This document shows, piece by piece, positions 5,658 to 22,928 of a DNA stretch of 32,000 nt. The first letter of the stretch is position 1. Every line of letters begins with the position of its first letter. The stretch lies in the NCBI GenBank assembly GCA_964514965.1, contig CAZETV010000001.1, positions 813,063 to 845,062 on the forward strand, given 5' to 3'. Source of the DNA: Candidatus Hadarchaeota archaeon. Its GTDB lineage: Archaea > Hadarchaeota > Hadarchaeia > Hadarchaeales > Hadarchaeaceae. The notes beneath the pieces were generated by a model, which worked only from the letters and a program-made list of their open reading frames with translations, searched no databases and was not told where the DNA came from. The position numbers were made by a program, and so were the translations under genes.

Positions 5658-6011
5658 ATGGAGGAACTTAGACCGCACAGAAAGCCAGCGCGCAGCAGAA
5701 AAATTTCAGAGATAAAAATAGGCGATGAGCAGGTGAGGATAGTCGGGCTGGTCGTTGACAAGAAGGAAGCCGAATTTGTGCTCGACGATGGCTCGGGTCA
5801 TCTCACCGTGTTTTTCGACGACCCCGCGGTGGTTGAAGGCGTGGAGGTAGGGTCAAAAATCAGGGTATTCGGGATGCCGCTGAACGTCGCTGGCACCCAC
5901 GAACTGCGGGCTGAAATCGTGCAGAAGATGGAAGGGTTGGACTTGGAACTGTATGAAGAAGTCAGGCGCGAAGTTAAAAAATTGGAGAAAGAACTCGAGG
6001 AGGGTGGATGA
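5658..6011 (+). CDS. OB-fold nucleic-acid-binding protein with acidic coiled-coil tail
   Basis: The VRIVGLVVDKKEAEFVLDDGSGHLTVFF...GSKIRVFG pattern is typical of tRNA-anticodon-type OB folds (RPA-like). The stop lies 1 nt before the PCNA ATG. Function is not assignable from sequence alone. TTG 5652 is an alternative start. Confidence 0.5.
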   Translation: MEELRPHRKPARSRKISEIKIGDEQVRIVGLVVDKKEAEFVLDDGSGHLTVFFDDPAVVEGVEVGSKIRVFGMPLNVAGTHELRAEIVQKMEGLDLELYEEVRREVKKLEKELEEGG

Positions 6012-6012
6012 A

Positions 6013-6768
6013 ATGGTAAGTGTCAAGATGACGGATTCGAAGACTTGGAAAACATGCGTGGGCGCGATGGTGAACCTCATCGACGAGGCGGCATTCAAGT
6101 TCACTCCCGAGGGCATCAAGATGAAGGCGATGGACCCCTCGCACGTCGCGCTTTTGGATTTCGAGTTGCCGGCTTCGGCGTTCGAGGAGTACACGGTCAA
6201 GCAGCCAACGACTTTGGGCATAGGCCTCACCGAGATGAACAAGATTCTGGCGCGCGCCAAGGCCGAGGACGGGCTAATCCTCGAGCTCGATGAGGAGAAA
6301 AATCGTTTGGCCCTCACATTCAAGGGGGTATCGACGAGGCGCCTCAGCTTGCCTCTCATAGATGTGAGCGAGGCGGAGTTGCCCGAGCCAAAGCTTCAGT
6401 TAACCGCGACCGCTGATGTGGCGGCGGGGGTGATTCAGGATGGATTGAAGGACGCAGAGATCGTGGGGGACAATGTGAAATTCGAATTGAGCGAGGACGG
6501 ATTTTTCCTTTCTGCTGAGAGCGATAAGGGCACCTCTGAACTTAAACTGCGCAAGGGAGACCAAGGGCTGCTGAAGCTCAGCGTCAAGCAACCGGCGCAT
6601 GCGATGTTCAACATAAAATATCTTAGCGACATGACGAAGGCGGCAGGGTCGTCGGAAGTCGTCACCATCAACTTGGGCACGGACTTGCCGATTCAGCTGG
6701 ATTTACCGGTCGCCGAGGGCAAAGGTAAACTGCGGTTCTTGTTGGCCCCAAGGATTGAGGCGGAGTGA
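6013..6768 (+). CDS. pcn: DNA polymerase sliding clamp PCNA
   Basis: 251 aa from ATG 6013. It contains LIDEAAFKFTPEGIKMKAMDPSHVALLDFELP...FLLAPRIE, a characteristic PCNA N-terminus and C-terminal LAPRI motif. The track ORF start at 5953 overlaps the upstream gene. Confidence 0.92.
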   Translation: MVSVKMTDSKTWKTCVGAMVNLIDEAAFKFTPEGIKMKAMDPSHVALLDFELPASAFEEYTVKQPTTLGIGLTEMNKILARAKAEDGLILELDEEKNRLALTFKGVSTRRLSLPLIDVSEAELPEPKLQLTATADVAAGVIQDGLKDAEIVGDNVKFELSEDGFFLSAESDKGTSELKLRKGDQGLLKLSVKQPAHAMFNIKYLSDMTKAAGSSEVVTINLGTDLPIQLDLPVAEGKGKLRFLLAPRIEAE

Positions 6769-7133
6769 TTTCGCGTAAAGGGAAGTGTGTTAAAGAGAAA
6801 AAGGATCAAAAAGTTCGATGAGTATTAGAAAAATTGGAACCGTAATTAGAGAGAAGCCGATAAAATTGGTGCAGTATTTGAGACGGGAGAAGGAGAGGTA
6901 TGAACCAGTTGTGATTTCGAAATGTATGATAAAGCGAATCTAAAGGCGCTTTCCTAACACCAATGGGGGGAGGCACCTATTTCTTTTTTCTTTTCTTTTC
7001 CCCAACCAATCTTCTCTTATGGTCTTGCTTACGCTTTTTCTGCCATCTCCTGTGATTAGTTTCCTTTCCAATCCCCTTGCTGTTGTAGGTCCTTTCTTTT
7101 TTGTCATCTTACCACATCTAACTTTATTTCAGA

Positions 7134-18076: not shown

Positions 18077-18565
18077 ATGATCCCCATGTCGGATGAAACC
18101 GAGTTGACTGAACGCCAGCTCTCTATCTTGCGCAAGCTCTTCAACGAGGGCAAGCTGATGCGGGTTCGTAGGGTCAAGAAAACGCAATCAACCTTGGCTA
18201 GGGAGCTCGGAATAACCCGGCAGGCGCTCAGTAGTCATTTGCGGGAGCTACGTGAGCTTGAGTTATTGAAATCTGGTAGAGGATTTATCGATCTCTCGGA
18301 AAAAGCTAGGCGCGTTCTCAGGGAAGGTCCAACTCAGGCCTTCGTGTTTGCCAAAATCGAGCCAAAGCAGAGGCATGACGTCTACAAGGAGATAATGTCG
18401 CTGGATGTGTTGCAGGCATTCCGCGTGACAGGGGATGTAGATTTGATTATTGTGGTGGATCGGCAAAAATTGGACAAAGTTTTGAAGGTGCTCTCGGGTA
18501 TCAATGGCGTAAAAGGAACTTCCGCTCATCTTGTGCTCTCTACGCTGGTCGAAGGGAAGTTTTAA
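18077..18565 (+). CDS. Lrp/AsnC-family transcriptional regulator
   Basis: It has an N-terminal HTH (TQSTLARELGITRQALSSHLRELRELELL) and a C-terminal RAM/AsnC-type domain (AFVFAKIEP...VTGDVDLIIVV). Its stop overlaps the convergent gene's stop (TTAA at 18562-18565). Confidence 0.7.
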   Translation: MIPMSDETELTERQLSILRKLFNEGKLMRVRRVKKTQSTLARELGITRQALSSHLRELRELELLKSGRGFIDLSEKARRVLREGPTQAFVFAKIEPKQRHDVYKEIMSLDVLQAFRVTGDVDLIIVVDRQKLDKVLKVLSGINGVKGTSAHLVLSTLVEGKF

Positions 18566-18969
18566 CGCTTTTTAGCGGTCTTTTTCGTGAGTTCTACCAT
18601 TCTCCGTTCGATTCGGTCTCGCAGCTCATCGAGGTTCCCCTCGCCGCGAGCTAGCGTAACGTAGTCCAACAGGTCATCCACCATGAGTTCAGCTGTCTCG
18701 GCCTCTAGAACTCCCGCATAAACAGCTAATTCTATAGTGTAGAAAGAGCGCATGACGGCGTCGCGCCCTATCCGCCAACGTTTCCAAGCTCCAGGCCTCT
18801 GCATACGAAGCCTTTTTGCGAGTTCTTCGAAGGTCGCACCTTCGCTCCAATAGTGCATGAGCATCGTTTTGAGCGTCTTTTCGTCTAGATGAGACCGCTC
18901 AAGCAACGCTCGCGCGAGCAGATTTTCCTGCATCCATTTTTCGGCCCTGGCGAATTCCTCCCTCGGCAT
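18562..18969 (-). CDS. small HTH protein, sigma-70 region-4 / LuxR-like helix-turn-helix (third gene of accessory operon)
   Basis: ATG 18969 is preceded by a GGGGG SD-like run. The segment LDEKTLKTMLMHYWSEGATFEELAKRLRMQRPGAWKRWRIGRDAV resembles sigma70_r4-type HTH domains, with a basic C-terminal tail. No family name can be given without a search. Confidence 0.5.
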   Translation of the reverse strand: MPREEFARAEKWMQENLLARALLERSHLDEKTLKTMLMHYWSEGATFEELAKRLRMQRPGAWKRWRIGRDAVMRSFYTIELAVYAGVLEAETAELMVDDLLDYVTLARGEGNLDELRDRIERRMVELTKKTAKKR

Positions 18970-18984
18970 TTTAGTCCCCCATAT

Positions 18985-19003
18985 GTTTCCATTTTTTGGA
19001 AAC
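18985..19003 (-). promoter_or_regulatory. perfect 7-bp hairpin between ATPase gene and third gene
   Basis: + strand GTTTCCA TTTTT TGGAAAC. In mRNA sense the loop is A5. It sits 16-34 nt upstream of ATG 18969 and 28 nt after the ATPase stop. Confidence 0.3.
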
Positions 19004-19030
19004 AAATAAATACCTGTTGGGTGGTGGGGC

Positions 19031-19909
19031 TCATATTAAGAAAGAAAATATTCGTTTAAAGAAGGAGCGTTTGTTTGCTTTCTTCACCACGCGCGCGTCA
19101 ATCGGCACATCTATCTCAGAGGCATAGTGTATGGCGTTGCTTGCGGCTTTCAAGGCTAACCTCGGAATCCCCTTACTGAGCTTGTAAAGTGATTTAAAGC
19201 CTTTTGAAGTCAGTAAATCGTTGTAATCGGCACATCCAGCGTTTTTGAGGCGCAATTCGAGCATTTCTTTTAGATTTTTCTTGCTCATTGGCTTTAGTTG
19301 GATTTTTGTTTGGATGCGGTCGGCCAGAGCTGGTGCCCTTGCTAGAAAGCGCTCCATTCTCTTGAGTTCGCCGTTGATCAGGATCGAGATATTTGGAATA
19401 TCGGCCAGCACGCGCAAAAATTCTCCAACCTCTAATGCGTCTGCGCCGCTCTCAGGGAGGTCGTCTATGATTATCGCTAGACGCTCTGGGTGTTCTTGGG
19501 GCCATCGGCGCAGAAATTCGAAGAGATTCTCCCTTTCTTTGCTGGCGTCCATCTCAAGTCCCAGAATTATCGCGCGCAATAGCTCATCGGCTGATTTGTA
19601 TGCGGCGCCGTGGATGAAAACGGGTATAATCTGTTTTGAGGGGTCGGGTTCAGTTAGATTCTCTTCCTTCAGCGATGCGACTAAAAACTCGCACACGGTA
19701 GTTTTGCCAGTTCCTAAACCGCCTGTGAGAACACCGACTTTGCCGCCATAAAACAAACGTTCGAGTTTGCGTAGGTCTTTACGCTGGAATGGGGCAAAAG
19801 CTTCGATGGATGGCAGCTCGAGCTTGAATGGGTCATCCTGCATCCCCCAGTTCCAGATATAACTCTCGAAAAGCCGATCTCGGCCGATTTTTTTATCGAA
19901 AGTGGTCAT
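19031..19909 (-). CDS. AAA+ ATPase of the ORC/Cdc6 - ExeA - TniB (AAA_22-like) type, no winged-helix domain
   Basis: It has Walker A GGLGTGKTT, Walker B LAIIIDDLPE, and a sensor-2-like SKGIPRLALKAASNA. The overall layout (DPF...P...F, then P-loop, then lid) resembles ExeA/TniB/Orc1 ATPase cores. The ATG overlaps the upstream stop (ATGA at 19906-19909). Confidence 0.75.
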   Translation of the reverse strand: MTTFDKKIGRDRLFESYIWNWGMQDDPFKLELPSIEAFAPFQRKDLRKLERLFYGGKVGVLTGGLGTGKTTVCEFLVASLKEENLTEPDPSKQIIPVFIHGAAYKSADELLRAIILGLEMDASKERENLFEFLRRWPQEHPERLAIIIDDLPESGADALEVGEFLRVLADIPNISILINGELKRMERFLARAPALADRIQTKIQLKPMSKKNLKEMLELRLKNAGCADYNDLLTSKGFKSLYKLSKGIPRLALKAASNAIHYASEIDVPIDARVVKKANKRSFFKRIFSFLI

Positions 19910-20709
19910 CTTGCCAGCCTCACGTGCAGTTCAAACCCCCCGTTTTTGCTCAAAATGTAACCGCAAGTACTCATTCGTTCGCAAAATGTTCTGGCAACAT
20001 CTTCGGGGCAATGAACTCGTGCAGTCAAATCCTCCAGCGTAAAGCTCTTGAGCACGGCAGTAGCTGAGAGCAGGTCCCCAAACAAGGTGCGCTGGGCCAG
20101 TCCAGTTGGCTTGAGGTCGTCTAAGACCTTGTGGCGAGGTAGTTCGGCCGCTTCTGGCACTGGAGGGGGCTGAATTTTAGCGGGTTTTTCGGTCTTTGGG
20201 GCCGGTACCTCCTCCGGTTTTGTGCTTGGTTTGGGAGTTGGCACTTTGTGTACATGTTTATGCACTAGGTTGTAACACTTCTGGCAAAGTGTGACTAGGT
20301 TATCAGGGTCGTTTTGGCTTGTTCCATTCTTGTGGTGCACCTCCAGTAGCTCCTTTCCCCCGCATTCTTGGCAGGTATAGTTGTCTCTGATGATTACGGC
20401 TTTTCTTACCAGTTCCCAATCATCCCGATGATAAGAGAAAACATAGTTCAAAAAGGAGGAGAGGGCTTCATCCTTCGAGATTGTGGTGAGAGAAGACGTG
20501 GGAGCGGTAGAAGAGCCCCGAATTAGACGATTTATCTCGCTTTCGGGTATCCTTCTTTGCCCTCCTTGGGGCCGCACAACTTTGATTTTTTCCTGTTTAT
20601 CCCACAATCTAATCGTGTTGGGATGTACTCCAAGTATTTTGCACGCTTCTTTCATTTTGTAGAGTTTTTCCTTTTGTTCCACTATCTCACCTTTTCTAAC
20701 AATAACCAA
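19906..20709 (-). CDS. Xis/MerR-type HTH - HNH endonuclease - Pro/Lys linker - C-terminal wHTH-like domain fusion protein
   Basis: The N-terminal KLYKMKEACKILGVHPNTIRLWDKQEKIKVVRPQGGQRRIPESEINRLI matches the excisionase/MerR HTH_17 pattern. The HNH core is CQECGGKELLEVHHKNGTSQNDPDNLVTLCQKCYNLVH. The linker is PTPKPSTKPEEVPAPKTEKPAKIQPPPVP. The C-terminus has a ...GYILSKNGGFEL wing-like motif. The TTG start at 20709 may be leaderless (TATA about 25 nt upstream). Confidence 0.75.
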   Translation of the reverse strand: MVIVRKGEIVEQKEKLYKMKEACKILGVHPNTIRLWDKQEKIKVVRPQGGQRRIPESEINRLIRGSSTAPTSSLTTISKDEALSSFLNYVFSYHRDDWELVRKAVIIRDNYTCQECGGKELLEVHHKNGTSQNDPDNLVTLCQKCYNLVHKHVHKVPTPKPSTKPEEVPAPKTEKPAKIQPPPVPEAAELPRHKVLDDLKPTGLAQRTLFGDLLSATAVLKSFTLEDLTARVHCPEDVARTFCERMSTCGYILSKNGGFELHVRLAR

Positions 20710-20820
20710 CAGATTTTAACAATACATAGATATAAAGTTAACGGCGGTTCTTAACAAAAATAACCTAAACTTTACTAAAAAGTTAACAATTGGAAGTTTT
20801 TGTTAGAATTTGTTAACAAT
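20650..20820. repeat. AT-rich module A: promoter/5' end of HNH operon with TAACAA iterons (paralogous to module B)
   Basis: By hand alignment it is about 75-80% identical to 21722-21892. TAACAA/TTAAC motifs lie at 20697, 20717, 20738, 20752, 20783 and 20813, with TGTTAG (reverse) at 20801 and the palindrome TTGTTAACAA at 20810-20819. The shared block is ATATAAAGTTAAC. Confidence 0.7.
20730..20738 (-). promoter_or_regulatory. TATA box (minus-strand CTTTATAT) for the HNH-ATPase-HTH operon
   Basis: It lies about 25 nt upstream of the TTG at 20709, consistent with a leaderless transcript. The element is quasi-palindromic (+ strand ATATAAAG), so bidirectional use cannot be excluded. Confidence 0.4.
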
Positions 20821-21721
20821 ATCAAAACGCGGAATTATCGGTGACATGATTTTCACTTTGGGGCAAAGAAGCATGAACGATTTAATGTGTGGCCTGTAGT
20901 TGGTTATGGAATGACGTTGAGGGTAATATTTTCTGAGGTCTTTTCAGCACAAGGGACTCGTTGGGATTGACTTCGGCGGTAGGTAGAAATGGCGTGATGA
21001 TTCATCATACGATGTAATCCTGGTTAGCGGCATCGAATTCTACGCGGCGTGGTCCTAAATGAGGCGCTTTACAAGAGGAAATTTTGGTTATTTTCACGGC
21101 TTAGGCCTTTTGCTGCTTTTGGGTGCAGCTGATCCCGGGTCGAGGACAAAATCCTCTCGGTGGTGGTGGGTATCCCCCCATGCCTTGGGACAGAAACCCG
21201 CCACGTTTCGAGGCGGGGTCTAAAGCCGCTTTCTTCCTTGTGCTTGCGTACTTGCCAGATGACCTCTAGCTAAGAAGTGACAGAACTTGGAGTCAGCGAT
21301 TTATACTTAATAATGATTCATGAAGTGAAATCCGTCTCTTACTGGATTGACCAATAACTATTCCCCCCTGGATTCCTCTGTAGTGCGGGGATACCCAGCT
21401 GCAGCTTGGGGTATTGATATCACAAGACCTTGGAAGTGTCTCCAGTGAAAAGGGGATGTACGACTTGCTGGTTGGAACCAAAATTTGGAGAGGGATATTT
21501 TGGAGGTATTGAGGTTCGAGGGAAGCCGGCATTGGTGTGGCCTCGGCCGCGTGAATAAGTTCCTTAATGGGTCCAAGAGTCCGTAATCGCAAGTGTTATT
21601 GATGGGGAAACAGCTTAAGGCTAAGTCGCGGCATATTCCCCCTCGAAGAACTCAGGGGCGCTGAATCTTTAAAGATATTTTAAATCTCAATTTGATCGGT
21701 CAAAACAGAGGATACCCTAAT
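20821..21721. ncRNA. candidate large noncoding (structured?) RNA region; strand unresolved, + strand favoured by composition
   Basis: No ORF of 60 aa or more on the + strand, and only two low-quality minus ORFs. A hand count of 20881-21660 gives about G 225, C 157, T 220, A 178 (G+T about 57%), which fits neither coding orientation. Two GC-richer blocks (about 20940-21295 and 21361-21660) are separated by AT-rich 21296-21360. Several hairpins and long-range complements were found by eye. No known RNA family was recognised. Confidence 0.35.
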
Positions 21722-21910
21722 CCTTACATTTTCTCCCATATTCTTTTACAACTTGTTTGTTTCGACTATTATTTTACATTTTTTAACAATAATCTACAAA
21801 TTCTAACGATAAATAAAAATATAAAGTTAACTAATTTTAACAAAAAATATGTTAAATAATTAACAAGTCTGGAAACTTTTGTTAGAATTTGTAAAATGCC
21901 GTCTAACAAA
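21722..21910. repeat. AT-rich module B: diverged copy of module A including a decayed copy of the HNH gene 5' end
   Basis: TAACAA/TTAAC motifs lie at 21783, 21803, 21827, 21837, 21860 and 21903, with TGTTAG at 21880 and ATATAAAGTTAAC at 21819-21831. The minus-strand translation *IIVKKCKIIVETNKL* compares with module A's (M)VIVRKGEIVEQKEKL. The module abuts the hypE stop at 21903. Confidence 0.65.
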
Positions 21911-22928
21911 TTCTGGGTGCCGGGTCCCCGATTGGCGACTCCAGCAGGCGCCGTCCGCCGACAATCGTTTCAAGCATAACGTCGCCAGGGTGGGTAGTTG
22001 TCGTTACTTCCCCTATCACGCACGCTTCTTTCCCGTACCTTGTTTTTCGAATTGCGGCGAGGACATCATCGCAGCGCCCGGATTCAGCCCCGATTATGGC
22101 TTTTCCCTCGTTCGTTATCTGAAAAGGGTCTATGCCGAGCATCTCGCTCATTGACCTGACTGCGGGCAGGAGGGGGACATCGGCTTCTCTTATGAGTATC
22201 CTGACATTTGCTTTCGAGGTCATATCGTTGAGCGCGGCCGCCAGGCCCCCGCGAGTCGGGTCTTTCATTGCCGTTATTCCGCCGACTTTCAGTGCGGCTT
22301 CGATAGTCTCCCAGATAGGTGCGATGTCCGAGCGGAGGTCGACATCAGCGCCGATGCCTTCCCGGTGGGCCATAATCGTGATGCCGTGGTCTCCGATAGT
22401 CCCCGTTGTGATAATCTTGTCTCCGGGGTTGAGTCCGTGGTCGGTCACTAAGGTTTCAGCCATACCAACCCCCGTACTTGTAAGCACAGCACCGTCGAGC
22501 GCACCCCGTTCCATCACCTTTGTGTCGCCGGTTATCAGCGGGACTTTTGCCTCTCTTGCGGTGGCGTCTATCGATCGACAAATTTTTCGGAAATCTTCGA
22601 CCAAAAAGCCCTCCTCGAGCACGATTGCACAGGCCATCGCGAGCGGTCGAGCCCCCATCACCGCTAGGTCGTTGACGGTACCTGCAATCGCGAGTCTGCC
22701 GATGTCGCCTCCAGGGAAGAAAAGCGGCTTGATGGTGTGGGAATCGGTCGTAAGCACGAGGGTTTTATCGCCAATCGATATCGTCGCGCCGTCGTCAAGC
22801 TCATCAAGCCCTATTTCTCCCGCGCGCTTCAGCGAGAGTTCCTTGAGAGCGACATCCGCGATGAGTTTCATCATCGCCTTGCCGCCAGCACCGTGTGCTA
22901 GCGAGATTTTTTCTCCTGACGTTTTCAC
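21903..22928 (-). CDS. hypE: hydrogenase maturation protein HypE (carbamoyl dehydratase)
   Basis: It has an AIR-synthase-like fold, an N-terminal LAHGAGG motif, and the C-terminal invariant PRIC ending. Confidence 0.93.
   Translation of the reverse strand: MKTSGEKISLAHGAGGKAMMKLIADVALKELSLKRAGEIGLDELDDGATISIGDKTLVLTTDSHTIKPLFFPGGDIGRLAIAGTVNDLAVMGARPLAMACAIVLEEGFLVEDFRKICRSIDATAREAKVPLITGDTKVMERGALDGAVLTSTGVGMAETLVTDHGLNPGDKIITTGTIGDHGITIMAHREGIGADVDLRSDIAPIWETIEAALKVGGITAMKDPTRGGLAAALNDMTSKANVRILIREADVPLLPAVRSMSEMLGIDPFQITNEGKAIIGAESGRCDDVLAAIRKTRYGKEACVIGEVTTTTHPGDVMLETIVGGRRLLESPIGDPAPRIC

Follow-up and report, generated by a model that had tools for sequence, protein, structure and literature searches.

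The window analysed here is a 32,000-nt stretch of a Candidatus Hadarchaeota genome (G000, 1.28 Mb in three contigs; window G000:C1:813063-845062), and the element under study is a pair of similar, AT-rich intergenic modules with repeated TAACAA motifs, termed A and B, which lie at C1 833.7-835.0 kb. Read along the minus strand, the locus consists of the hydrogenase maturation gene hypE, module B, ~900 bp without a long open reading frame (ORF), module A, a gene for a helix-turn-helix (HTH) domain fused to an HNH nuclease domain (HTH-HNH gene), an ATPase gene and a gene for a 147-aa protein (Table 1). The HTH-HNH protein gave Pfam matches to HTH_17 (9.7e-11), MerR (4.2e-10) and HNH (4.2e-5). 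As its HTH_17 domain starts at residue 16, an upstream TTG or ATG start is needed, and close relatives have an ATG one codon upstream of the TTG position. At the opposite border of the locus, the closing codons of hypE (ATT TGT TAG, i.e. Cys-stop) form the last TAACAA motif (at 21904). All genomes used for comparison are metagenome-assembled genome (MAG) assemblies.

A sequence-only reading of this DNA had proposed that the two modules are a direct duplication that includes a decayed 5' end of the HTH-HNH gene. Local alignment of positions 20640-20830 with positions 21712-21910 bears this out: a score of 86 was obtained across ~145 nt, compared with 21.6±3.0 (maximum 43) for 500 dinucleotide-preserving shuffles, which places the similarity ~21 standard deviations above the control and far above chance for AT-rich DNA. 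The aligned blocks are collinear with a spacing of 1079-1089 nt and comprise 52 nt at 77%, 26 nt at 88% and the 13-mer ATATAAAGTTAAC at 100% identity, while the ~120-nt cores of A and B share 69% global identity. On the minus strand, TTG (20709) is followed by VIVRKGEIVEQKEKLYKMKEAC in A, and TAG (21796) is followed by IIVKKCKIIVETNKL and a stop in B, so that both proposed peptides were recovered exactly; the stop in B comes after 15 codons. The 10-bp palindrome TTGTTAACAA described for module A is also present (20810-20819) and specific to this genome. Module B of G000 carries an 11-nt deletion relative to orthologous B modules, and no further copies of a module or of the spacer were detected in the 1.28-Mb genome. 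Both modules are genuine and old copies of a single intergenic control region.

Table 1. Features of the locus (positions in the window).
Feature	Positions	Strand	Basis or remark
147-aa protein, third operon gene	18562-19005	-	ORF
AAA_22 (ExeA/TniB-like) ATPase	19031-19909	-	Pfam
HTH-HNH gene, first of operon	19906-20709	-	267 aa, TTG start; HTH_17/MerR-type HTH fused to HNH nuclease
Module A, hypE/HNH intergenic control region	20657-20816		Alignment to B; includes first ~50 nt of HNH gene
Leader region upstream of cassette gene	20895-21058	+	Alignment, BLAST
Pseudogene X, DUF4367 family, N-terminally membrane-anchored	21059-21683	+	68% nt identity to intact G030 gene
Module B	~21743-21895		Alignment to A
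Decayed copy of HNH gene 5' end inside B	21743-21796	-	TAG in place of start codon; stop 15 codons on
Module B core, directly downstream of hypE	21779-21895		Keeps 13-mer ATATAAAGTTAAC, T-runs on both strands
hypE (hydrogenase maturation)	21903-22928	-	Pfam AIRS + AIRS_C; C-terminus ...PRIC* in orthologues

The DNA between the modules was characterised by a DNA search of relatives. Positions 21006-21573 match a gene of G030, a genome of another family, with 68% identity (568-604 nt aligned), and the G030 homologue is an intact plus-strand ORF of 222 aa. Homologues of this gene, termed X, are intact in G030, G006, G009 and G003, and in every case a hydrophobic anchor is present at the N-terminus; the Pfam cut-off for DUF4367 (PF14285), 22.1 bits, is reached by those of G003 (33.1 bits) and G009 (X2, 23.4 bits). 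In the window, X extends from an ATG at 21059 to a TAA at 21681-21683, with frameshifts from codon ~6 onward. Read through, it contains 8 in-frame stops (5 TGA, 3 TAG), and tblastn matches of the intact proteins are split over frames +2 and +3, stops included. Given the intact homologues on the one hand and the frame changes and stops on the other, the window copy, which is the sole copy in the genome, is a pseudogene. In L070, the closest relative covering the site, the 5' end is also frameshifted near codon 6 and then runs into a stop. The segment between the modules is therefore a heavily decayed protein gene on the plus strand, opposite to that of the minus-strand RNA considered in the sequence-only reading, and not an RNA gene. 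Rfam returned no match for the whole window at the gathering threshold and none for positions 20500-22000 at E <= 10; in related loci, a lone sub-threshold match to sR32 was obtained, inside hypE. The minus strand of the 901-nt spacer showed no excess folding relative to shuffles (z = -0.78).

A search for empty sites, which the sequence-only reading had recommended, identified them in six relatives, five of the same genus (G010, G001, G012, G002 and G005) and one of another genus (G020). In each case, the hypE stop and the HNH gene are ~110 bp apart, with one TAACAA module between them. These sites are phylogenetically basal and therefore look ancestral rather than excised, and the order of hypE, HTH gene and AAA ATPase gene without a cassette is also found in other genera. 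Filled sites, with module A, a cassette and module B, are present in the genomes closest to G000 (82-90% nt identity in the HNH gene), a statement that covers the closest relatives with contigs spanning the locus (G007, G003, G006, G009 and L075). The content of the cassette varies. In G000 and L070 it is the decayed G030-like gene, in G006 a single copy of a second X type, and in G009 two copies that are 88% identical and accompanied by three modules. A very divergent paralogue, X' (195 aa), is intact in G003 and L075 and split by a frameshift in G007. DUF4367 genes located elsewhere (G030, G015) have no TAACAA cluster alongside, so the modules belong to the locus and not to the cassette.

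Several of these loci show further peculiarities. In G007 (Hadesarchaea DG-33; L024 2523-3183), the frameshift divides X' into ORFs of 148 and 104 aa, reflecting either a second, independent decay of a cassette or else a sequencing error. A further contig binned with G006 (G006:C22; L152, 6096 bp) encodes a ParA/MinD-like ATPase and putative surface proteins of 816 and 334 aa, followed by a longer, 349-aa X' and a B-like module at the contig end; it comes either from a co-binned strain with a far larger cassette at this locus or from another site that has a third copy of the module. L071 (JABUBO010000001.1, reverse-complement 5665-6805) contains 320 nt of hypE and the terminal 153 nt of the cassette gene, after which come a module and hypE once more, an arrangement that may have arisen by local rearrangement or as an assembly artefact at repeats.

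The origin of the two copies was inspected in a tree of the modules. Single-copy modules fall into one clade (100/99) and all A and B copies into the other (100/99), within which the B copies are monophyletic (84/98). Since the A and B copies group with each other and not with the single-copy modules, they go back to one in-situ duplication in the ancestor of the filled sub-lineage, and neither copy was imported. Exchange between copies is recorded in G009, in which, in a MAG assembly with three modules and two cassettes, the middle module is B-like in its core and A-like at its right edge, with the switch inside a 19-nt stretch identical in A and B. Such a hybrid is the expected product of unequal crossover, and an identity of 19 nt is too short for an assembler misjoin at the usual k. 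Traces are found within the cassettes as well: X and X' alleles have a ~125-nt leader (20895-21020) in common as far as CCCCATAC (~21004-21008), a recombination breakpoint beyond which the sequence is homologous to DNA located upstream of the gene in G030. The alignments show recombination between cassette types.

Around the cassette gene and the module borders, additional conserved elements were noted. A stretch starting with ATGGCACGAGGATCCCCATAC (window 20995-21061) is conserved ahead of both X and X' genes, with 86% identity between L070 and the distant G030 (L021 2140-2195). It forms a 22-codon upstream ORF with TAA-ATG at the gene start in L070 and is fused in frame to X' in G007; its possible identities are an upstream ORF, a former N-terminus and a regulatory leader. 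In G030 (G030:C20; L021 2990-3300), a clustered regularly interspaced short palindromic repeats (CRISPR) array with the repeat CTTTCAATACTACACTAGTCCGATTCAAAC starts ~130 bp downstream of the intact DUF4367 gene. At the modules, the right edge in the filled lineage (TAGAATTTGTTAA in A; 20800-20816, 21879-21895) is the reverse complement of the hypE terminus of empty alleles (TTAACAAATTCTA; L015/L016), and in B this edge and the hypE stop region make up an inverted repeat of 9 bp. A hairpin of the hypE end and the module block AGAATTTGT is no more stable than shuffles (z = -0.9). The inverted copy of the hypE terminus, TAGAATTTGTTAA, may be a footprint of the duplication event.

The conservation of the two copies was compared with a neutral yardstick, the 4-fold sites of hypE and the HNH gene, at which G000 is 72-77% identical to G003, G006, G007 and G009. 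The A core of G000 is 80-88% identical to orthologous A cores and lies above this value, whereas its B core (71-77% to orthologous B) is about equal to it. In our reading, A would be the working promoter/operator and B of G000 a relic that decays with the dead gene. Because of its T-runs on both strands, the T-rich module B might at most act as a terminator of hypE.

TAACAA is rarer than expected in the genome as a whole (499 observed, 712 from composition), and its two densest clusters in the 1.28 Mb are A (7 in 118 bp) and B (5 in 121 bp). The motif is enriched relative to shuffles, 0 of 2000 of which reached the observed count. Module A carries 5 TAACAA and 2 TTGTTA motifs, those of the palindrome included; module B carries 3 TAACAA, 1 TAACGA and 1 TTGTTA, in addition to the motif at the hypE Cys-stop. 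The blocks TT.T.ACAA, T..TAAC.ATA and TA.AAAGTTAAC are conserved to at least 90% in 21 modules from two genera. On the minus strand of A, a sequence resembling a transcription factor B recognition element (BRE) and a TATA box, GTTAAC-TTTATAT, is located at 20742-20730, and ATTGTTA-N13-ATTGTTA surrounds the start at about -14/-8 and +7/+13 relative to TTG 20709, with a 20-bp spacing. Such an arrangement would fit an archaeal repressor site that straddles a leaderless start.

Other Hadarchaeota lineages have short forms of the first gene without HNH (173-197 aa) between hypE and the AAA ATPase gene. Their spacers contain different repeats, namely TTGACA/TAGACA in place of TTGTTA in G023 (L155 2128-2432) and G004 (L159 1696-1766) and GGACA in G024 (L156 2198-2300), all of them enriched relative to shuffles. 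In the about three lineage groups compared, which are related to one another, motif and predicted recognition helix change together (HPNTIR/HPNTLR with TTGTTA, CTKTIQ with TTGACA/TAGACA, SVRTLQ with GGACA). This covariation suggests autoregulation by the first protein of the operon, and the TAACAA motifs are most likely operators for the operon's own HTH protein, with autorepression across the transcription start. The only other TAACAA-rich spot of the genome (C1:408100-408160) is intergenic, downstream of a 344-aa ORF, and contains CTTGTTA...TAACAAG palindromes around the TATA-like ATATTTATATAG; this set looks like an unrelated operator. Matches to PADLOC defence-system models were limited to the generic HTH (mad1) and HNH (ZorE) domains, and a literature search on Hadesarchaea with hydrogenase and HNH yielded nothing relevant.

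The reading to which we assign a probability of roughly 80% is the insertion of a gene with duplication of its target, followed by recombination and decay, with A as the working promoter/operator. The ancestral state, retained in more distant Hadarchaeota relatives, would have been a single ~120-bp AT-rich spacer between hypE and the same-strand HTH-HNH/AAA+ ATPase operon, which terminated hypE transcription and carried repeated TAACAA (ATTGTTA) sites along with the operon promoter. Within the genus, in the ancestor of one sub-lineage, a gene for a DUF4367-family membrane protein would have been inserted on the opposite strand, duplicating ~155 bp of target around itself, that is, the spacer and the first ~50 nt of the HNH gene. 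Copy A, beside the operon, would have retained the promoter and operator role, and copy B, beside hypE, at most that of the terminator. The direct repeats would then have been used for unequal homologous recombination and cassette replacement. In G000, the cassette gene is now a pseudogene and B drifts at about the neutral rate.

Four points weigh against this account. At ~155 bp, the duplicated target is long. Outside G000, B cores are 90-94% identical, compared with 82-89% at 4-fold sites, and B may hold a function in these other species. The covariation of motif and helix is drawn from about three lineage groups that are mutually related. Finally, module-like repeats break or misjoin MAG contigs; several contigs end at modules, and L071 has its odd internal repeat.

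The second of these points bears on the proposal that B is a second, active copy of the operon promoter that drives an antisense or non-coding RNA on the minus strand across the cassette, co-regulated with the HNH operon. The BRE/TATA-like 13-mer GTTAACTTTATAT of A recurs unchanged in B, and the B copies of G007, G003 and G009 have retained it; in these species, the conservation of B cores slightly exceeds that of 4-fold sites. The DNA to be transcribed, however, is the relic of a plus-strand protein gene and not a conserved RNA gene, it has neither an Rfam match nor excess structure, and B of G000, shortened by 11 nt, has a neutral rate of evolution, so that this proposal of the sequence-only reading is not upheld and we consider it unlikely. 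Its suggestion of a ~1-kb insertion holds in outline, given the single-module empty sites, but not in the form of an att-like replacement of a gene end. In that version, the modules would be attL and attR of a site-specific integrative element whose imported promoter and 5' gene end replaced those already in place. The empty alleles, the gene 5' end within the direct repeats and the composition of the neighbouring operon (excisionase-type HTH_17, HNH nuclease, TniB/ExeA-like ATPase) would suit such an element. Yet neither an integrase nor a transposase is present in or beside the insert, which consists of the DUF4367 pseudogene alone, and a tRNA scan found no tRNA and hence no tRNA-type target. 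Moreover, A and B are sisters relative to the single-copy modules, so that neither was imported, DUF4367 genes elsewhere lack the TAACAA cluster, and synteny of the HNH operon with hypE is maintained across genera, insert-free genomes included. An att site is therefore very improbable. We give equally little credence to the idea that the modules are recognition or recombination sites of an undescribed archaeal cassette-exchange system, in which the HTH/HNH nuclease and the TniB/ExeA-like AAA+ ATPase would cut TAACAA arrays. If true, it would promote the capture, swapping and amplification of surface-protein (DUF4367) genes beside its own operon, and would explain at least 4 cassette configurations between the same two modules with flanks 86-95% identical.

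An assignment of the paired TAACAA arrays as iterons of a replication origin or partition site appears most improbable. It would draw on the AT-richness of the modules, which are among the lower-GC 200-bp windows, on a motif repeated in both orientations with ~20-bp spacing and on a nearby AAA+ ATPase gene. In the relatives, though, a single module suffices, the pairing is accounted for by the insertion, and the ATPase is ExeA/AAA_22-like and without the Orc1 winged helix. In addition, genes containing Cdc6_C are located at C1 804 and 751 kb, i.e. 29 and 82 kb from the modules, and the cumulative GC-skew minimum (~780-790 kb) is ~45-55 kb away, the latter being a weak test in a genome of three contigs. 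The two Orc1/Cdc6 genes (C1 803.3-804.6 kb, ~9 kb before the start of the window, and 751 kb) and the skew minimum mark the region in which the chromosomal origin probably lies; the 1.5 kb around the gene nearer to the window showed no ORB (origin recognition box)-like repeats. Chance likeness of two low-complexity stretches retains practically no probability. Both regions are AT-rich with a common short motif, but chance resemblance is excluded by the shuffle test and the module tree, the blocks keep their order, and orthologous A and B copies exist in five other genomes.

Gene insertion with target duplication explains the two modules as a case of ordinary genome evolution, with the candidate operator, specific to this locus, as a feature of modest interest. 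For annotation, the apparent large non-coding RNA gene between iterons becomes a dead DUF4367 gene between the copies of a duplicated promoter/terminator spacer, which removes false leads for an RNA gene and an origin. The locus also provides a dated natural experiment on a duplicated control region, one copy of which is conserved while the other is neutral in G000, a candidate regulator-operator pair from an uncultured phylum (HTH-HNH protein and ATTGTTA repeats) and a natural variant of specificity in which a CTKTIQ helix goes with GACA-type repeats.

Among known systems, iteron and ORB origins likewise consist of AT-rich DNA with a repeated short motif, but they differ by an adjacent initiator gene and a unit of ~20-36 bp, compared with 6-7 bp here, where relatives have a single array and the site is away from the skew minimum. 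The attL/attR sites of tRNA-targeting archaeal and bacterial elements resemble the modules in that the repeats include a gene end and relatives have empty sites; here, by contrast, an integrase and a tRNA are lacking, the repeats have no exact core in common but show 69-77% identity, and both copies are derived from the resident sequence. DUF4367 (PF14285) proteins constitute a family of unknown function, and the homologues of X share the N-terminal membrane anchor and the domain, the window copy being a pseudogene. Archaeal autoregulated promoters, in which a repressor binds repeats over the TATA box or start, are similar in that the repeats flank a predicted leaderless start downstream of a TATA-like box, an HTH protein is the product of the first gene and the motif appears to vary with the recognition helix across lineages. 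They differ in that the motif of this locus also occurs further upstream and in both orientations and that the putative regulator has an HNH nuclease domain. Gene insertion with a duplicated target and unequal recombination is matched by the direct repeats around a dispensable gene, the single copy in outgroups, the hybrid repeat in a two-cassette array and the variable content between the repeats; what sets the present case apart is the length of the target (~155 bp), which spans a whole promoter/terminator spacer and the 5' end of a gene.

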